Virus record (IMG/VR): IMGVR_UViG_2671180770_000010 | Location: 1-8,162 of that record | Direction: 5' to 3' (one strand) | Source: a virus | Taxonomy: Duplodnaviria; Heunggongvirae; Uroviricota; Caudoviricetes | DNA length: 8,162 nt | Part shown: piece after piece, positions 1-8,162 of the stretch | Numbering within the stretch: position 1 is the first letter of the stretch | Layout: each line of letters starts with the position of its first letter | Made by a program: the position numbers and the translations under genes | The notes under the pieces: generated by a model | The model's input: only the letters and a program-made list of their open reading frames with translations | The model's database searches: none | Told to the model about the DNA's origin: nothing

Positions 1-40
1 GTTGACGAAGACGATTCAGATTTTCTTCTTTTGTTGCCAT
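1..40 (-). CDS. 5' end of a lambda gpFI-like DNA-packaging protein gene (partial, runs off the window)
   Basis: Minus-strand ATG at 38-40 with GGAGG at 46-50 upstream. The 13 translated residues MATKEENLNRLRQ resemble the lambda FI N-terminus as I recall it. It lies directly downstream of a capsid gene and terminator, as in lambda E-FI. Only 13 codons are visible. Confidence 0.4.
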   Translation of the reverse strand, partial: MATKEENLNRLRQ

Positions 41-54
41 CTCAGCCTCCTGTG

Positions 55-83
55 AAAAAAGACACGGGGGCATTTCGCCCCCG
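55..83 (-). terminator. Rho-independent terminator after the truncated capsid gene
   Basis: On the minus strand, stem CGGGGGC, loop GAAAT, stem GCCCCCG, then TGTC and a T6 run. It begins 8 nt after the stop at 92-94. Confidence 0.6.
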
Positions 84-91
84 CTCACGGA

Positions 92-883
92 TTATTTCAC
101 CTGCACCACCACAAACTCATCCGGATCCGGCAGCACCATCAGCGGTGCGGACTGCGTCATGGTGAATTCACGGGCCGGATCGCCCACAGTCAGCCAGTGT
201 TTCGGATAACGGGAAGAGGCCACCACACCTTCGGACAACGCCTGCGCATCCTGAATGGCACCATAGCAACGAATGCCCTCTGCTGCCGTATTCCCCAGGA
301 CCAGTGTGCCCACCGGCAGATAACGTTTTTCGGTACCGTCGTCTGCCACATAAGACGTTTTCGCCACCACAATGGCCAGATCACCGTAATACCCTTTGAA
401 AGACACCACCGCTCCCAGGTCTTTCACTGCCGTTTCGAGTTGTGAATTTGAGCCGCGACGGGTATCCAGTTTTTCGCGGAACAGCTTAAAGCCATTCAGC
501 AGACGCCAGACCGTACCGTCCATAATGGCAATATTTACAAGACCGCTGGCCTGATCGCAGTAAAGGTCAATATCATGCGTCGGATCAAACGTATCACGGT
601 CCTGCTCAGACCATTTTTTACCGTCGGCCTGCTCAATGTTATTTCCTTCAGAGCGTCCGAAATCCACCTCGACCGTGTCAAACTGTTCCCCTTCCATGGT
701 GTATTTGCCATACAGCACGGCATTCACCGCCTGCATTTCTTCCACCTGGACAATGGCGTGCTCTTCCTGTTTGAGGTTATCGGTAATGATACGCAGACGA
801 CGGTAGGCCGGGTCGTTCAGCTGAGCCGGATCTTCACCAGGAAGGCGCTCAACCGCCTGCTGGTAATTAAATTCGTGTTTGGG
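92..883 (-). pseudogene. N-terminally truncated lambda gpE-family major capsid protein (roughly residues 80-341 retained)
   Basis: The translation carries gpE-like blocks (VEEMQAV, KLDTRRGSNS.LETAVKDLG, GDPAREFTM.QSAPLM, PDEFV.VQ). Hand translation upstream of the listed start shows the homology continuing to 883 (PKHEFNYQQAVERLPGEDPAQLNDPAYRRLRII). It then ends at an in-frame TAA at 884-886 with no start codon. Candidate internal starts are GTG 743-745 and ATG 734-736. Confidence 0.8.
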
Positions 884-1019
884 TTACATGAGTCAAATAT
901 GAAAGGATGTGAATGATTTGATTACGTTTTAGCTATAGAATTGAAATGGAAAATCCTTGAATGCAATACAACGTGCAATACATGGATGAAAACCATCACT
1001 CATTTAACAAGAGGAATCT

Positions 1020-1925
1020 ATGCGCTCACCCAACAGAATGCATGAACGCTCAACATTTTATAAGTATATGTCGTTGAATACCGCGAAGATTGTTCTTGAT
1101 TCATGCAGCCTTAGATGGAGTTCTCCGGTCCTATTTAATGACCCTTTTGATGTTCCAAGAGAAGTTATGCCTGGTATTAACGAAATTAATATTGGCAAAG
1201 CTTTAGCCCGCAAGTTAATAGCGGAGTTGATTACCCCCAGAGAAGACATACAAAATTTAAATCCTAGAATTAGAACAATGCTAAGTGATTTCCAAAAGTC
1301 ATTTCCTTTAGGCATACCCGCAGGATTAATTGAAAGATTTCAAGAAATGGTAAACATTCCACCAGTTGGGATTGGCGCTCCTGCGGCAATACAAGAAATG
1401 AAAGATGTCTGGCGAGGAATGCTTAATAACAGAAGGATTTTGTGTTTATCTGAGAGCCCTATAATCACTCCTATGTGGAATCACTATGCCGATAAATATA
1501 AAGGTATAGTTATCGAATTTGATTGTGTAGACTTTCTGGATAGCGCTTGGTTAATAGCCAAACCTATGAAATACACAGATGAAATGCCTCTAACTCACAC
1601 TGCTGAAGGGATGGCCGAGTTGCTTTTCATGCCAGACAATAAGTCAATTGAATATATCAATAATGAGATAATATTCATAAAAACAGAAGAATGGGCATAT
1701 GAAAGAGAGTGGAGAATTTCAACCTACGCTAGGCCAAATAGCACTGGTCAATATAGCGACTTAAAATTTCACCCTTTTGAGTTAAAATCTGTAATACTTG
1801 GTCCTCTTTTTGATGCCAGCGAGTTCGATGAAGTCGCATCACTAGTTAAGATGTATCCAAGAGCGAAATTATTTAAAAGTTCATTTGGGAACGACAGAAA
1901 AATATCCATAGTACCACTACCTTAA
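1020..1925 (+). CDS. Hypothetical 301-aa protein, DUF2971-like (tentative family assignment); candidate accessory or anti-phage cargo gene
   Basis: Long ORF with AGAGGA 5 nt before the ATG. It is strongly AT-rich compared with its flanks and is convergent with the neighbouring phage genes. Motifs YKY..L......L......SP.LFNDPFD, LCLSE and W.HYAD.YKG..IEFD match my recollection of DUF2971. Confidence 0.7.
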   Translation: MRSPNRMHERSTFYKYMSLNTAKIVLDSCSLRWSSPVLFNDPFDVPREVMPGINEINIGKALARKLIAELITPREDIQNLNPRIRTMLSDFQKSFPLGIPAGLIERFQEMVNIPPVGIGAPAAIQEMKDVWRGMLNNRRILCLSESPIITPMWNHYADKYKGIVIEFDCVDFLDSAWLIAKPMKYTDEMPLTHTAEGMAELLFMPDNKSIEYINNEIIFIKTEEWAYEREWRISTYARPNSTGQYSDLKFHPFELKSVILGPLFDASEFDEVASLVKMYPRAKLFKSSFGNDRKISIVPLP

Positions 1926-1956
1926 AAGGTCAAATGCTTTTGACAAATAAAATCTA

Positions 1957-1980
1957 TCGCCAGTTTTACTGGCGACTTTT
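1957..1980 (+). terminator. Rho-independent terminator downstream of the 301-aa gene
   Basis: Stem TCGCCAGT (1957-1964), loop TTT, stem ACTGGCGA (1968-1975), then CTTTT. It sits between the two convergent genes. Confidence 0.5.
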
Positions 1981-2031
1981 AAGCAACAAAGAACCACCTA
2001 AGCACTCTTCCTACCTATGGTTTCATTTGTT

Positions 2032-2583
2032 TTAACTTCGCTGATTATCCTTGATATACCTTTCAGCCATATCTGGAATGTTATCTGAGATCTGGTAAGC
2101 TCGAATAAATGCTTTACTGACCTCCATCTTAATGAAGTCCTGATACCGTTTTTCCATGCCAGGAAACTGTCGACAGATCGCAAGTGGAAGACTATCAATG
2201 ATTGCTCCAACTTCCCCAGTTAATTTCGACAAGGCATAAGTCGCAAATGCAGTGTCAATTACCTCACCTGTTTCGCTGGCATTCTTCAGTTCCTGTGCGT
2301 CGGCCTGCGCACGCGTAAGTCGATGGCGTTCATACTCAATAGTCCCTGGCAGGAGATCTGCCTCGCTGGCCTGCCGCAGTTCTTCAACCTCCCGGCGCAG
2401 CTTTTCGTTCTCAATTTCAGCATCCCTTTCGGCATACCATTTTATGACGGCGGCAGAGTCATAAAGCACCTCATTACCCTTGCCACCGCCTCGCAGAACG
2501 GGCATTCCCTGCTCCTGCCAGTTCTGAATGGTACGGATACTCGCACCGAAAATGTCAGCCAGCTGCTTTTTGTTGGCTTCCAT
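2032..2583 (-). CDS. Terminase small subunit, lambda Nu1 family (mosaic, divergent C-terminal part)
   Basis: The first ~103 residues are almost identical to lambda Nu1 as recalled (MEANKKQLADIFGASIRTIQNWQEQGMPVLRGGGKGNEVLYDSAAVIKWYAERDAEIENEKLRREVEELRQASEADL...). The remainder is recognisably related but divergent and AT-rich. A lambda-like cos lies immediately upstream and the length (183 aa) matches Nu1 (181 aa). Confidence 0.9.
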   Translation of the reverse strand: MEANKKQLADIFGASIRTIQNWQEQGMPVLRGGGKGNEVLYDSAAVIKWYAERDAEIENEKLRREVEELRQASEADLLPGTIEYERHRLTRAQADAQELKNASETGEVIDTAFATYALSKLTGEVGAIIDSLPLAICRQFPGMEKRYQDFIKMEVSKAFIRAYQISDNIPDMAERYIKDNQRS

Positions 2584-2610
2584 TGTTCATTCCACGGACA
2601 AAACCAGAGA

Positions 2611-2800
2611 AAGGAAACGACAGAGGCCAAAAAGCCTGTTTTTAGCACCTGTCGTTTCCTTTCTTTTTAGGGGGTGTTTTTAATAAAAACATTAAGTTAC
2701 GGCGAAGAAGAACGGAAACGCCTTAAACAGGAAAATTTTCACAAATAGCGAAAAACTGCGCGCCTGACGCCCCGTAACGTTCTGGATCACCGGAAAGGAC
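2611..2800 (-). other. Lambda-type cos site: conserved cosB (about 2611-2758), variant cosN (2761-2772), cosQ-like flank (about 2779-2800)
   Basis: The minus-strand sequence GTTACG-GGGCGTCAGGCG-CGCAGTTTTTCGCTATTTGTGAAAATTTTCCTGTTTAAGGCGTTTCCGTTCTTCTTCG...GAAAGGAAACGACAGGTGCT...CTGTCGTTTCCTTTC...GTGGAATGAACAATG parallels the lambda cos/Nu1 leader as I recall it. The 12-nt cosN equivalent is GGGCGTCAGGCG against lambda GGGCGGCGACCT. Confidence 0.7.
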
Positions 2801-2828
2801 CCGCCAGCCAGAGCGGGCCCTAATTTCA

Positions 2829-3212
2829 TCAACCAATCAGCTTATAGCGACCATCCCGTGCATTGCGGCGTACACGCTCAATCTTGAGGCATAGCGCCGC
2901 ATCTGGCTTTTTTGGGACAGGTACGCGGCAATATTCAGAAGCGCGAGGAATATTATTTATCCAGTCGATCACTTCACTTAAATACCAGGCCTTACGCCCT
3001 TCCGTAACCTGCACACGCTCCGGGAACTCTCCACTAGCCTCAAGGTTTAGCAGTGTACGACGACTCAGGGTTGTAATTTCCATCACCTGATTCATATCAA
3101 CAAGGCGCTCGCTTAAACACATTTTGTCAGCGATAGCTTTTAATTCCTCTACAGCTGGATTCGGGTACATCATTTCGGCAATTGGCTTAAGGTCATTGTA
3201 ATCATTCTGCAT
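2829..3212 (-). CDS. AlpA/Xis-like HTH DNA-binding protein (127 aa), last gene of the capsid operon and adjacent to cos
   Basis: The C-terminal segment EITTLSRRTLLNLEASGEFPERVQVTEGRKAWYLSEVIDWI fits the AlpA-family MerR-like HTH pattern. The start ATG at 3210-3212 follows AGGGGGA, just after the upstream gene's TAA. Confidence 0.6.
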   Translation of the reverse strand: MQNDYNDLKPIAEMMYPNPAVEELKAIADKMCLSERLVDMNQVMEITTLSRRTLLNLEASGEFPERVQVTEGRKAWYLSEVIDWINNIPRASEYCRVPVPKKPDAALCLKIERVRRNARDGRYKLIG

Positions 3213-3223
3213 TGTATCCCCCT

Positions 3224-3565
3224 TTACACACGAGCCAGCGGCTGAACAGAAATACCTGAGCCAACAAACGCTGCAACCTTTACTGACAGTTCTTTAACAG
3301 ACTCAGGCCAGTTCAGAGCATCAACATTTAAGACACCTGTCTTATAGACCTGAGCCTGTGTTTTTTTCGCGGTGTCGATTTGTACAGCGGAAACATAAAC
3401 CGCTTTACCTACGCTCGAACCATCCCATACTACCAGTGCACCTGTTGCATCTTCCTGCATCAGTGGCGTAAATGCAGGAATTACCCCTTTATTAGCTGAA
3501 AATATCCCCAGCGTAGTCACCAGTGCTTCAGTGCCAGCCATGAGTTCAGTGTAATGAGTAGCCAT
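3224..3565 (-). CDS. Head decoration protein, lambda gpD family
   Basis: 113 aa against lambda D at 110 aa. Shared blocks include TPLMQEDATGALVVWDG (lambda TPLMLDTSSRKLVAWDG), YKTGVLNVDALNWPES (lambda YKSGTFRYEDVLWPEA) and AFVGSGISVQ (lambda AFAGTAISIV). A GGGGGAG ribosome-binding site sits between the upstream stop and the ATG. Confidence 0.8.
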   Translation of the reverse strand: MATHYTELMAGTEALVTTLGIFSANKGVIPAFTPLMQEDATGALVVWDGSSVGKAVYVSAVQIDTAKKTQAQVYKTGVLNVDALNWPESVKELSVKVAAFVGSGISVQPLARV

Positions 3566-3574
3566 TGCTCCCCC

Positions 3575-4615
3575 TTAGCCAATGCGAACGGTAACAAAAC
3601 GATTGATGCGGGCCGGTATTGGCTGTGGTGCTGAATGTGTCTGCACATATTCAATAGCCGGATCACCAGGCACAATATAGTTTTTCGGTGCAAGTTCGGC
3701 TTTAGTCAGCCCCATTCGGATTAGCTCCGGATCCTGAATACCGCCATAGGCGACAATCCCCTGAAGAGCCGTATTGCCAAGCACCATCAAATCAGGATCA
3801 AGGAAATGTTTTTCTGTTCCGTCCTCGTCGGTATAACGCCCGCTGTAAACAACAATCGCAACATCGCCCATATACCCTTTAAAACTCACCGAATCACCAA
3901 GGTCTTTAAGGGCCGTTTCCAGTTCGGAATTAGAACCACGACGGGTATCCAGAGCCTCTTTTATAGCTCTGAATGAACGGTATTTCTTCCATACATTACC
4001 GCCCATAATGATAATATTAGTGACGCCCTCACTAAATTCTGTGTAGCTCTCAATATCATCATTTGGATCAAAAGTTTCTTTATCCTTACCTGACCACTCA
4101 GCACCGCCAGACTGAGTGATGATATTTTGTGGTTTAATATTCCAGTCCAGCTCATAACGTTCAATACCATCGCCCTCAATGATATTTTTCCCCGTTGTGA
4201 TTGCCTGAACAGCAAGCCATTCAATACGTGCACGAATAGCTTTAGCTTGATTTACAATCGCCTGTTTAACTTTAATATTACGCGCCCCAAAAGCATTGTA
4301 TTGCTCAGGTGATACACCAGCAGGGCGCACAGCTAACTTATTTGGATCAATGCTGCTTTTCGGCTTCATATAGCCTGGACGAATTGTTTTTGATTCGTAC
4401 CCTTCGTCACGTGAAACTTTACTACCCACCATAGGAGAACAAAACGCTGCAATTGGGATATTTGGATCGTCGATTGTATCAAGAATAATATCGCGCGATT
4501 CAAACATTACCGAGCGAGTAAAAAACAAACTGGTAAACAACGCATTTAGTTGTTTTTGTACATCTACAGCATTAACCACCTGTACAAGCTGAGTAGGCGA
4601 ATATAAATCAACCAT
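3575..4615 (-). CDS. Major capsid protein, lambda gpE family (complete, 346 aa)
   Basis: gpE-like blocks run the full length (LYSPTQL..., RPGYMKPK, ITQSGGAEWS, DTRRGSNSELETALKDLG, GDPA.E). I moved the start to the ATG at 4613-4615, which has AAGAGG 6 nt upstream. The 404-aa ORF in the track is an upstream over-extension. Confidence 0.85.
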   Translation of the reverse strand: MVDLYSPTQLVQVVNAVDVQKQLNALFTSLFFTRSVMFESRDIILDTIDDPNIPIAAFCSPMVGSKVSRDEGYESKTIRPGYMKPKSSIDPNKLAVRPAGVSPEQYNAFGARNIKVKQAIVNQAKAIRARIEWLAVQAITTGKNIIEGDGIERYELDWNIKPQNIITQSGGAEWSGKDKETFDPNDDIESYTEFSEGVTNIIIMGGNVWKKYRSFRAIKEALDTRRGSNSELETALKDLGDSVSFKGYMGDVAIVVYSGRYTDEDGTEKHFLDPDLMVLGNTALQGIVAYGGIQDPELIRMGLTKAELAPKNYIVPGDPAIEYVQTHSAPQPIPARINRFVTVRIG

Positions 4616-4789
4616 ACGCATCCTCTTTGCATTCATTAAAAATAATTGTGGATATATGCTATCACCGATATTTGTCATGCGAACACATGCAACCGAGTGC
4701 AATGTTGTATAAAGTTTTGGGGTGACAACTTCAGTGCGGACAATTAGTGTTAATATCTTCACTCCCTTTGGTCGGGATTTATGTAGCAT

Positions 4790-4821
4790 GCCGGAAAATT
4801 TATTTTTTCCGGCCTTTTTTT
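4790..4821 (+). terminator. Plus-strand intrinsic-terminator-like hairpin between the SSB and capsid genes
   Basis: Stem GCCGGAAAA (4790-4798), loop TTTATT, stem TTTTCCGGC (4805-4813), then C and a T7 run. The T-run follows the hairpin only on the plus strand, which is antisense to the surrounding genes. Confidence 0.4.
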
Positions 4822-4832
4822 ATTGGCAATAT

Positions 4833-5282
4833 TTAAAACGGGATATCATCTCCCCATTGCTCATTATCTCCCACTGGTGGCTGGCTTCCTTGCTGATCTG
4901 CCTGTTGTTTTGCTCTGTTCAGTGCGTCAGTAGCCTGCCCCTGTTGGCCTTTTTTGCCGCCCGGTCGCACCGATCGCGCACTGATTACGCTGTCTGCGAT
5001 AACCTGCCAGCCCTGCCGCGTTTCGCCGTTCTGTCCAGTCCACTGGCTCATCTGCATGTTACCCGCCACGCTTAGGAGTTCGCCTTTGTGATGCTTTGCC
5101 AGCGCGTCGGCTTGTCTGCCAAACGCCAGGACAGATAACCACATCGTCGCCTGACCGTCATCCGACTGACTGCAGGGCAGTGATACCGCCATACGCGCCA
5201 GCGTCATGGGGGTGCCCTTGCTGGTCTGTTTTGTCTGCGGGTCGTCCACCAACCGCCCGTAAACTGATATTTGCGCCGTCAT
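4833..5282 (-). CDS. Single-stranded DNA-binding protein (SSB family), 149 aa
   Basis: OB-fold-like N-terminal region (ISVYGRLVDDPQ...TKQTSKGTPMT..., WLSVLAFGRQAD), a Gly/Gln-rich linker and the canonical acidic tail DDIPF. Its ATG overlaps the upstream gene's TGA as ATGA at 5279-5282. Confidence 0.8.
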   Translation of the reverse strand: MTAQISVYGRLVDDPQTKQTSKGTPMTLARMAVSLPCSQSDDGQATMWLSVLAFGRQADALAKHHKGELLSVAGNMQMSQWTGQNGETRQGWQVIADSVISARSVRPGGKKGQQGQATDALNRAKQQADQQGSQPPVGDNEQWGDDIPF

Positions 5283-5524
5283 GCTGCCTGCTCTCCGGAC
5301 TTAATATTGATTGTTGTCACTTCCTCCGCTTCAGCAATCTCCCGTTCGGTCAGAGTGGCAAAATTTGCAGCCGCCGTTGTCATGAATGCGCTAATCAGTT
5401 CGGGATGTGCTTTCGCGTATCCTTCCCCGGCGTTGCGGTCGATGATTTTTATCGACACCCTTAACCAGTGTTCCGTCAAATCAAGGGCGTGCGATTGTGA
5501 TTTTTTTGTGTGCTTCGCTGTCAT
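5279..5524 (-). CDS. Hypothetical 81-aa protein, translationally coupled to the SSB gene
   Basis: ORF sits directly downstream of the iteron region and overlaps the SSB start by ATGA. I do not recognise a family. Confidence 0.5.
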   Translation of the reverse strand: MTAKHTKKSQSHALDLTEHWLRVSIKIIDRNAGEGYAKAHPELISAFMTTAAANFATLTEREIAEAEEVTTINIKSGEQAA

Positions 5525-5570
5525 AGGCTTTATCTCACAGCAGTAAATTAAAATTTTTGCGTTTTAACCC

Positions 5571-5798
5571 TTCACCTGTTCACCTTTTGATATTTTCTCT
5601 TTTAATTCATAATGTTAATGGGTGAACAGTTTCACAAAAACTATTCACCAACTGTTCACCACTGTTCACCCTTGAAGCTCAATAAACAATCAAAAAGGTG
5701 AACAGTGAATAGTTTGGTGAACAGTTCATAAATAACTGTTCACCCTATAATATACTGATATAAAAGATATTTATGACAGGGTGAACAGTGGTGAACAG
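5571..5798. repeat. Iteron array (P4 ori/crr-type TGTTCACC repeats); putative replication origin
   Basis: About ten copies of CTGTTCACC or its complement GGTGAACAG in both orientations (5576-5584, 5621-5629, 5652-5660, 5662-5670, 5697-5705, 5716-5724, 5736-5744, 5780-5788, 5790-5798, plus degenerate copies). An AT-rich stretch lies at 5745-5779. The array is adjacent to the primase gene. Confidence 0.75.
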
Positions 5799-5811
5799 TT
5801 ATTCCATAAGT

Positions 5812-7632
5812 TTAATTTTTGCTATCGTCATTAGTGACCGATACACATGATGGCATCCAGTCTTCTGATTCCTCCGTCAGTGTCACGTTTGAACGCAAAC
5901 CGTGCTTCGTTTTCCGTTTCATATACTCCCTGCCATATTCCGCCATTGCCCCCGGCATATCTTTACCGAAGCGCGTCAGTGTTACAGGTTTACCAAACCC
6001 ATGTGCCCTCATATAAGCCAGATAGGCATGATAGAGATACCTGCGTGGGCTGAATGGCACAATTTCAGCATTACCCACTAACAGGCCATCACACATTACC
6101 GATGCCATGAGATAGCCGCAGAAGTCCACCAGCGAATCCCCCTCTCGCTTTATCGCCAGTGCTTCTTCAGATTTCTGCTGCTCATATAACAGGCGTCTGG
6201 CTTCGTCCTGATCAGCAAACCGTGTAAGCAGATGACGAATCACTACCGCCAGCTCACCTTCTATTTTTTCCGCCAGCATCGAATCGCGTTCGTTCTCCGG
6301 TACAACTTCCGAAAAATTGAATATCACCCGACGACGTGAGATCCCCCCGCTGCGGTCACTGAATGACATGGCGTTATTGTTAACCACCAGCACTACTGCC
6401 GGAATACGCGTTGAATAGGGGGCTTTGTGTTTCGGGTCAATTGCCACCTTGTCACCGCCTGTAATGGCCTTAATCCCTGCCCCATCACCAGCGTAGCGGG
6501 TCATATCTGGCATGATAATCAGCGAAAAGCCAACCACTAACGCACGTTCCCTTGCATCTTCCAGCGCCTTCATGCTTGCTGATACTGTATTAGCCTTACC
6601 CGCCAGCATGGTGCAAATCTCCGCCATCACGCTTTTACCACTTCCCCCCGGCCCTGTTACCTCAATGAATAACTGCCAGTCGTACCGGTTCGCCAGCACC
6701 ATGAATAATGCCGCCAGTACGCGATCTGCCTTGCGGTCATTCTCAGCCACCGAACGGCGCAACCACTTCCAGAAATTCGGCGCATGTGTTGCCAGCGTTT
6801 CCCCCTCTGCTGGTGGGCTGAAAGGTAATTCACTGGCAATTAACAACCAGTCGTTTTTGTTATGCTCCCGAAAATTACCTGTTCTGGTATCAAATACCCC
6901 GTTACTGAATCCAATCAGGTTACGGGCTGTATTCCCCATTACAGGCAAACTTAACTTCATGGTATCTACCGCCGATTTAATGGCGTTCTGCGAATAGCTG
7001 ATCTCCGCATCAATGAAAATCTGCGCCATAGCACGCTGTAACTCTTTATCCTGAACCGGCTCCCATACAACGCCGTTGTAATGATGAACGGTGTCAGAGT
7101 CGGCATTGATTGCCAGTTCGCCGCCGTAATGTGCCAGGAGAACTTCACCGCGCTGGCTGGCCCCCATCTGATTCAACGCCAAAGATGAAGCACGCTCGTC
7201 ATTTTTGCGCTCTGCCTTCTTCACTGGCAGTTCAATCACCAGACTTTCCCCATGCTCCGCTTCAGCTTTTAGGCCGACAAGGCGCGGAGTCCAGTCTTCA
7301 GGCTCTCGATCAACAAAGCTACGGTAACAACGTGCTTCCTTTACGCCTGCAATAGCAAGTAATGTCGCAACCTTCGTCAGACTTTTCTCTGCAATCTTTC
7401 CGGCACGATAAACACGCACATAATGACGGCCTTCATCGATAATTTGCATATCATCCAGGTTTTCCAGTTGTTCCGTACCCAGAATTACTGGTGGTGTATC
7501 ATCTGCTGCAATATGCTTACCTGCCCATTCATTCCATTCTTTTGCATGGCTCCAGGCATCACTGCCAGCAAAAATGATGACTTCCGTCATTTTGTCGCGC
7601 GGTTGGTATTTTAAGTTCGGAGCACGTTTCAT
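5812..7632 (-). CDS. P4 alpha-like replication protein (phage/plasmid primase-helicase family; pri-rep)
   Basis: 606-aa ORF with the Walker A motif GPGGSGKS (EVTGPGGSGKSV) in its central region. Its size, architecture and the adjacent TGTTCACC iterons are typical of P4-family and PICI primase/helicases. The ATG overlaps the upstream ORF stop as ATGA at 7629-7632. Confidence 0.85.
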   Translation of the reverse strand: MKRAPNLKYQPRDKMTEVIIFAGSDAWSHAKEWNEWAGKHIAADDTPPVILGTEQLENLDDMQIIDEGRHYVRVYRAGKIAEKSLTKVATLLAIAGVKEARCYRSFVDREPEDWTPRLVGLKAEAEHGESLVIELPVKKAERKNDERASSLALNQMGASQRGEVLLAHYGGELAINADSDTVHHYNGVVWEPVQDKELQRAMAQIFIDAEISYSQNAIKSAVDTMKLSLPVMGNTARNLIGFSNGVFDTRTGNFREHNKNDWLLIASELPFSPPAEGETLATHAPNFWKWLRRSVAENDRKADRVLAALFMVLANRYDWQLFIEVTGPGGSGKSVMAEICTMLAGKANTVSASMKALEDARERALVVGFSLIIMPDMTRYAGDGAGIKAITGGDKVAIDPKHKAPYSTRIPAVVLVVNNNAMSFSDRSGGISRRRVIFNFSEVVPENERDSMLAEKIEGELAVVIRHLLTRFADQDEARRLLYEQQKSEEALAIKREGDSLVDFCGYLMASVMCDGLLVGNAEIVPFSPRRYLYHAYLAYMRAHGFGKPVTLTRFGKDMPGAMAEYGREYMKRKTKHGLRSNVTLTEESEDWMPSCVSVTNDDSKN

Positions 7633-7916
7633 TTGTTACCTCCGGCAACTAACATTGCCCGAATTTTGCGGATATAGCCTGCGGCACGCCTCTGATTATC
7701 TGTCTTGCAATTTTTTACCAGAATGAAATCTCTTTCGAACTGCTGACGCGGCATAACACATTCAAAATCATAACCATCACGCAAATAAGAGACACGACGA
7801 TCATCAACCGAAATAATCTTTACCCGATAGCCATAGCTGTCTTTGAAAATATCCCCAAGGCTGATTTTTGAATGAGTTTGACCGCTGGCAATAAAGCCAG
7901 AAAATTTATTTTTCAT
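7629..7916 (-). CDS. Hypothetical 95-aa protein, translationally coupled to the primase gene
   Basis: ORF has GGAG 8 nt upstream of the ATG at 7914-7916 and an ATGA stop/start overlap with the primase gene. No family recognised. Confidence 0.5.
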   Translation of the reverse strand: MKNKFSGFIASGQTHSKISLGDIFKDSYGYRVKIISVDDRRVSYLRDGYDFECVMPRQQFERDFILVKNCKTDNQRRAAGYIRKIRAMLVAGGNK

Positions 7917-8162
7917 TTTTTATTCTCCGGTATAGCTCTGATCGTGTATTTTTATAGCTTCATCCAGCTCTTTGATGACAGGATCAAGTAACGTAATTAA
8001 CGCTCCAGCTAAATTAGCATCCCGTTCATCGTGTTCCGCATTTGTTGTCCCATCAAGCCAGGTTGGGCTTTGTTGAATAAATAAGATTTCGTGCGAACGA
8101 CCCTGTAGCTGGCTGGATTTTCAGGCAATACGCACGCTTTCTGGCATCCCAGCCTTTGTCAT

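Follow-up and report, generated by a model that had tools for sequence, protein, structure and literature searches.

Helper-embedded phage-inducible chromosomal islands (HE-PICIs), satellites that split a late gene of a lambdoid helper prophage, were described by Tommasini, Mageeney and Williams (NAR Genom Bioinform 2023; PMC10111431), with 201 instances reported for the site E:Phage_cap_E:80, which corresponds to codon 80 of the Pfam profile. After treatment with mitomycin C, the composite prophage carrying the type element Eco567.11capE (hereafter 11capE) excises and replicates, and precise excision of the satellite follows from 2 h, reaches 42–98% of composites and restores the helper capsid gene (PMC10111431). 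The 8,162-bp stretch analysed here (the window; IMG/VR record IMGVR_UViG_2671180770_000010), which is the whole of draft contig CYAV01000104.1 from assembly GCA_001277695.1 in reversed orientation, very probably holds most of an HE-PICI of about 10.5 kb, together with its right attachment site (attR), set in a lambdoid prophage with a phage-21-type head, whose major capsid gene it splits. The arrangement is one already published in 2023, and the window repeats the type element almost exactly, but with another cargo and terminase end and in another capsid allele.

Over window positions 2546–8065, 11capE, which is carried by Escherichia coli NRG857c, is 98.6% identical in nucleotide sequence. 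The two share the insertion site in the helper capsid gene, the orientation, a variant cosN 12-mer and the gene order DUF4222, primase, 81-aa open reading frame (ORF), single-stranded DNA-binding protein (SSB), capsid, decoration and AlpA-like helix-turn-helix (HTH) protein. They differ at the cargo and terminase end, where 11capE carries DUF262 and HEPN genes and, in the position of Nu1, no more than a 195-bp ORF, while the window has a full Nu1 gene and a DUF2971/PDC-S31 gene, and in the host allele, which is lambda-type for 11capE and phage-21-type in the window (68% nucleotide identity between the types), with the core one base different.

The model Gram-negative PICI, EcCICFT073 (Fillol-Salom et al. 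2018, PMC6092414; 2019, PMC6739421), resembles the window in size, layout, a gpE-family capsid gene (c1499), a decoration gene (c1500) and an origin downstream of the primase gene, and is cos-packaged by lambdoid helpers. EcCICFT073 is, however, chromosomal, lies apart from its helper and acts on it only in trans; it has no phage-type cosB and its Rpp retargets the helper TerS, whereas in the window cosB is lambda-like and Nu1 complete. A homolog of the helper major capsid protein is encoded by the satellite in SaPIbov5 (Ccm) and in capsid-forming PICIs (cf-PICIs) as well, but Ccm redirects the size of the capsid, which the HE-PICI family is not known to do, while cf-PICIs encode the entire set for head and packaging and the window, with genes for capsid, decoration protein and small terminase only, has no portal, protease or large terminase. 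In active lysogeny a prophage serves as an excision switch inside a host gene, for example Listeria comK. There, as here, a mobile element splits a gene, precise excision restores it and expression hangs on excision, but the interrupted gene is bacterial, whereas here it belongs to another mobile element, the helper prophage.

A helper capsid gene in two pieces

The features of the window that bear on the capsid genes and on the junction between helper and satellite are as follows.

1–40, minus strand: start of the next helper late gene, for an FI-type DNA-packaging protein (ATG at 40–38, GGAGG at 50–46), which continues past the contig end
64–84, minus strand: terminator-like hairpin in the interval between the helper capsid gene and FI (9-pair stem with 7 G-C pairs, then a T run), a pattern match only, from a consensus scan
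92–883, minus strand: 3' part of the helper prophage major capsid gene (gpE family, phage-21 type), 263 codons and a stop
875–894, minus strand: attR junction GACTCATGTAACCCAAACAC, with satellite-type sequence on its 5' side and the capsid gene on its 3' side
963–982, minus strand: doubled attachment-arm motif TGTATTGCACGTTGTATTGC, with one exact match in the window and 0 in 200 shuffles
3575–4615, minus strand: intact major capsid gene belonging to the satellite itself (gpE family), 346 aa, with the start called at 4615

A preliminary description of this DNA had placed two diverged gpE-family capsid genes within 92–4615, one intact and the other a 5'-truncated remnant. Two such genes are present, and both match Pfam Phage_cap_E (PF03864) far above its curated cut-off of 22.9 bits, the 263-aa translation of the fragment at positions 77–329 of 329 (E=6.6e-47, 160.6 bits) and the intact copy at positions 4–327 (E=6.1e-41, 141 bits). 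The truncation is equally clear, with the frame of 92–883 closed by a TAA at 884–886 and homology to E starting at the second residue of the translation. It is the word remnant that does not hold. E. coli Ecol_AZ146 has an uninterrupted capsid gene of 342 aa, and with its corresponding part window positions 60–883 agree at 100%, the identity breaking off at 884 within the Y-V-K-P-K-H codons (K78-P-K-H), and the protein fragment is 98.9% identical in amino acids to the capsid proteins of isolated lambdoid PhiR12 phages and 92.6% identical to that of phage 21. Judged by these identities, the fragment is part of the capsid lineage of functional lambdoid phages and shows no decay. It is one half of an intact but split gene.

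The other half is found in complete genomes. At least 80% of the window is matched in 17 complete E. coli genomes, each with two features annotated as major capsid protein, and 980-2 is 96% identical to the window over 110–8065. In both 980-2 and K56-43-un, a 246-bp capsid piece 'missing C-terminus' adjoins a tyrosine integrase gene, and a 789–792-bp piece 'missing N-terminus' corresponds to window 92–883; NRG857c likewise has the element between the 5' and 3' pieces of a capsid gene. The outer flank on one side consists of complete lambdoid head genes (large terminase, W, portal, S49 protease and decoration protein) and on the other of homologs of FI, FII, Z, U, V, G, T, H, M, L, K and I. In an independent draft contig that is 99.96% identical to the window, the genes after the capsid piece match Packaging_FI, Phage_attach (FII), Minor_tail_Z and Phage_tail_U, an order that is the same in 980-2 and K56-43-un. 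When the satellite is excised in silico at the shared CCNAA core, ORFs of 341 (980-2), 342 (K56-43-un) and 341 aa (NRG857c) result, and the restored ORF of 980-2 matches lambda E at 339 of 341 positions. An assembly chimera at the capsid junction was ruled out by the independent contig and the complete genomes.

Independently of the published work, the integrase and its attachment arm were found in 176 of 5,426 complete E. coli genomes, and a capsid-gene piece lies under the junction in all 44 full-length rows sampled (of 45 listed). The integrases of 980-2 and 11capE are identical at 409 of 411 positions. The target alleles are lambda-type in 980-2 and NRG857c and phage-21-type in K56-43-un and the window; because they differ among hosts, insertion at this site appears to have happened repeatedly, and the comparison points to repeated site-specific insertion.

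Other features expected of an HE-PICI were compared as well. A lambdoid prophage late gene is split, with the 3' piece and the next late gene in the window and both pieces in the complete genomes, and the interrupted capsid gene and FI share their orientation with the primase, SSB, capsid, decoration, HTH and Nu1 genes. Every substantial gene lies on the minus strand, with the DUF2971 cargo gene (plus) the only exception. Of the four-zone layout, the window covers the Replication and Late zones, in the expected order; the Integration zone and the greater part of the Bro zone fall beyond it and are present in 980-2, K56-43-un and NRG857c.

That the fragment is instead a dead remnant, its 5' end lost by deletion or by an unrelated insertion and the rest decaying beside an island that has nothing to do with it, is very unlikely. 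Such a history would suit the window taken by itself, where only the 3' part is visible and neither a start codon nor a promoter-like site was found upstream, and it would suit RefSeq, which labels such capsid pieces pseudogenes in 980-2 and K56-43-un. It does not suit a fragment that is 100% identical to an intact gene and broken exactly at the published attachment site, the family motif standing at its expected distance, nor the 5' piece, which every complete genome examined carries in register beyond the integrase and with which in-silico excision restores the ORF. The internal start codons given in the preliminary description, at 743–745 and 734–736, do exist (a GTG at 745–743 and an ATG at 736–734). 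Expression of the fragment from them was considered and seems improbable: a scan of window 1–1100 returned no promoter-like site, and since the sequence is identical to intact alleles elsewhere, nothing in it has evolved for internal initiation.

Attachment sites and integration

The crossover that produced attR can be inferred to lie within CCCAA (883–879), at the K-P-K-H codons and about codon 80. Alignment of the fragment from profile position 77, together with the end of identity at K78-P-K-H, fits insertion at about codon 80 of Phage_cap_E. On the satellite side of the junction, the sequence GACTCATGTA is common to 980-2, K56-43-un and the independent contig. The core in the window reads CCCAAACAC, and the satellite-derived side of the left attachment site (attL) in relatives reads CC(C/G)AAGCAC; K56-43-un has the host-type GCCGAA in attL and attR alike.

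The spacing of the arm motif agrees with that of the family. The doubled TGTATTGC motif ends 82 bp from the centre of the crossover (CCCAA) in the window, and does so in 980-2, K56-43-un and the independent contig, while a second copy, outside the window, starts 134 bp from the centre in 980-2, K56-43-un and NRG857c. For HE-PICIs a doubled motif tgTGTATTGCantgTGTATTGCa has been reported 81 ± 2 bp upstream of the centre of the satellite attachment site (attP), with a second copy 132 ± 2 bp downstream, distances for which the exact measuring points are not stated (PMC10111431). The motif is probably bound by the arm domain of the integrase or by AlpA. A regular-expression scan of NRG857c found the doubled motif on the attL side only, and the window has the motif at attR. 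The attL side in the source strain is expected to read GGCTACGTCAAGCC(C/G)AAGCAC, then TTAGCATGGCTTTCTGAGG, followed by the integrase gene.

Some points weigh against reading the window as an HE-PICI integrated in this way. The core carries a mismatch at window position 878, with A in the window where relatives, on the satellite side of attL, have G. Tyrosine integrases usually favour identity in the overlap, and this integrase seems to tolerate mismatches in or beside the overlap region. The contig ends before the integrase gene, attL and the 5' capsid-gene piece are reached, so that for this strain they are inferred from relatives. Infectious particles were not recovered even for 11capE (PMC10111431), and the window copy and its helper may no longer be active.

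Two capsid genes of different ancestry

The intact copy (3575–4615) is identical to the capsid protein of 11capE at 345 of 346 positions (99.7%), and no relative above 42% identity was found for it among the 50,697 phage records searched. Its best solved structure is 3BQW, a 'putative capsid protein of prophage' (E=1e-120), which we take to be the CFT073 PICI protein, with lambda gpE behind at 8.5e-76. On this evidence the intact copy is a PICI-specific paralog of the satellite lineage. The start at 4615 is used by gene callers and RefSeq and fits the N-terminus of the family; the frame stays open for 58 codons upstream of it (4616–4789), to an ATG at 4789.

Across the C-terminal stretch of about 262 aa that the two copies share, the fragment is 64% identical to lambda E and 41% identical to the intact copy, and the intact copy is 45–46% identical to lambda E (42% over its full length). 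The fragment is accordingly the one nearer to lambda E, as had been proposed, and pairwise identity clearly rules out that the two copies are closer to each other than to any other gpE homolog, the outcome that would have told against their separate ancestry. The earlier suggestion of different ancestry, a helper-type copy paired with an element-specific one and no recent tandem duplication, is borne out by their affiliations, the fragment being of a lambdoid phage capsid type (close to phage 21 and PhiR12) and the intact copy no more than 42% identical to any of the phage records and almost the same as its counterpart in the satellite 11capE.

Conserved blocks such as DTRRGSNS.LET had also been put forward as recombination substrates, and homologous recombination between the helper and satellite copies, giving chimeric capsid genes or deletions, was weighed on that account. 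Short conserved blocks do exist (e.g., LDTRRGSNS), and satellites have been proposed to capture helper late genes, though by integrase activity and not by homology (PMC10111431). The longest exact nucleotide match between the fragment and the intact copy is nevertheless 14 bp, with about 61% identity across the local alignment. A match of that length at that identity is below what RecA-dependent recombination needs in E. coli. The copies are, moreover, direct repeats, between which a crossover would delete the terminase, cos and cargo region, and no chimeric capsid gene occurs at the site in 980-2, K56-43-un or NRG857c. We regard recombination between the copies as highly improbable, and the proposal as to the blocks is not sustained; the recombination that did occur is the tyrosine-integrase crossover at the K-P-K-H codons. 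Divergence after a duplication within one element, tandem or dispersed, can be dismissed almost with certainty, for although the copies belong to the same Pfam family and lie 2.7 kb apart on the same strand, it is refuted by the pairwise identity matrix (41% between the copies, with the fragment matching phage and prophage genes at 99–100% and the intact copy nearest to 11capE and to the PICI-type structure 3BQW), and their position on opposite sides of the attachment site assigns them to two different elements.

Proposed mechanism and implications

Under the HE-PICI interpretation, a tyrosine integrase would recombine attP of the satellite with a short capsid-gene target at the conserved K-P-K-H codons. 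The insertion would leave the helper gene in two pieces, a 5' one of about 80 codons that lies past the contig end beside the integrase gene and, at 92–883, a 3' one of 263 codons, and helper capsid protein presumably could not be made until the satellite leaves. While in place, the satellite would be replicated passively with the helper and would probably be transcribed within its late operon, because the satellite core genes are co-oriented with that operon. After leaving, it would use its own origin and be packaged by helper proteins through its own cos-like site and Nu1. Its capsid and decoration proteins may replace the helper protein or compete with it; the idea that the satellite capsid is a backup copy has already been raised by the authors who described the HE-PICIs (PMC10111431).

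A satellite placed within its helper's capsid gene would be inherited, induced and replicated with that helper while blocking production of the helper capsid until its exit, a relationship in cis that differs from that of the usual trans-acting satellites. For annotation, this means that a pseudogene labelled 'partial major capsid protein' and adjoining an island that resembles a PICI should be taken for half of a split and restorable gene and not for a sign of prophage decay, and that tools for prophage completeness will wrongly score such helpers as defective. The window copy adds a variant of the cargo and terminase end and a phage-21-type target allele to what was described, and no new principle.

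Packaging genes and the cos-like region

Between the cargo gene and the satellite capsid gene lie the following features.

2032–2583, minus strand: Nu1-type small terminase subunit, full-length, 183 aa (Pfam Phage_Nu1 positions 1–162 of 164, E=8e-82)
2584–2828, minus strand: cos-like region with a lambda-like cosB and the Nu1 leader, aligned with the left end of lambda, the cos of the NRG857c helper and 11capE
2829–3212, minus strand: AlpA-family HTH protein, 127 aa (Pfam Phage_AlpA, E=7.6e-9; PDB 8C3T, AlpA family, E=2e-9)
3224–3565, minus strand: head-decoration protein of the gpD family, 113 aa (Pfam HDPD, E=4.5e-15; 38% identity to lambda D over 78 aa)

The Nu1 of the satellite shares 72% amino acid identity with that of lambda, and window 2246–2803, which covers the 5' part of the gene and its leader, is 93% identical in nucleotides to the cos-nohD region of the helper prophage in NRG857c. 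The Nu1 region (2032–2803) seems to be a helper late gene that the satellite captured recently. Within the cos-like region, a variant 12-mer GGGCGTCAGGCG stands at 2772–2761 on the minus strand and is also present in 11capE, whereas lambda and the NRG857c helper have GGGCGGCGACCT; the sequence on its flanks is cosQ-like and cosB-like and close to that of lambda. Among the 50,697 phage records, the full 93-nt cos stretch had no match above 88%. The variant 12-mer may be a satellite-specific cosN.

The combination that marks Rpp-type redirection of packaging (Rpp with a cos lacking the phage cosB) was not found, the cos-like region having retained a lambda-like cosB and the 127-aa HTH protein having given only an AlpA-family match against solved structures, in a comparison that included no profile-based search for Rpp. 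A further step would be a packaging and capsid programme of the satellite's own, in which the complete Nu1 and the cosN GGGCGTCAGGCG, and not Rpp, confer a packaging specificity that depends on its own small terminase, and the satellite capsid and decoration proteins build the first procapsids on the portal and protease of the helper as long as the helper capsid gene remains split. We hold this to be rather unlikely. If true, insertion into the capsid gene would be a timed capsid swap and not only a delay, although of the whole programme only the cos/Nu1 specificity would be new.

Cargo, replication genes and the ends of the element

The remaining features of the satellite within the window are a cargo gene next to attR and the replication genes.

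1020–1925, plus strand: DUF2971 cargo gene, 301 aa (Pfam DUF2971; candidate defence family PDC-S31 of PADLOC, E=2.5e-32; GC content 0.36–0.39)
4833–5282, minus strand: SSB (Pfam SSB, E=1.7e-16), also in 11capE
5279–5524, minus strand: 81-aa protein with no assigned function, also in 11capE
5565–5810, unstranded: iteron cluster in the gap between the primase gene and the next ORF, with at least 10 copies of GGTGAACAGT in both orientations in AT-rich DNA
5812–7632, minus strand: D5-type primase/helicase, 606 aa (Pfam D5_N, DUF5906 and Pox_D5), also in 11capE
7629–7916, minus strand: DUF4222 protein (Pfam DUF4222), also in 11capE

In relatives, the slot taken by the DUF2971 gene, the interval between the terminase gene and attR, holds a gene for an Abi protein, DUF262 and HEPN genes, or a restriction endonuclease gene. 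The slot appears to be a hotspot for defence cargo, and the DUF2971 gene is a candidate anti-phage defence gene in this variable position.

At the opposite end, similarity between the window and 980-2, K56-43-un and 11capE stops at 8065, and the independent draft contig itself runs only to about 8061. That the two drafts stop at or close to the border of the variable Bro zone suggests a repeat in this place, or sequence that varies among strains. When the window was searched with Rfam for P4-type immunity RNAs (C4, isrK), no match was obtained; the Bro zone, in which they occur, is mostly outside the window.

The iterons span 5575–5804, just downstream of the primase gene. Origins of PICIs lie 3' of the replication initiator gene (PMC6092414; PMC10111431), and by its position and repeats the interval 5565–5810 is probably the replication origin of the satellite.

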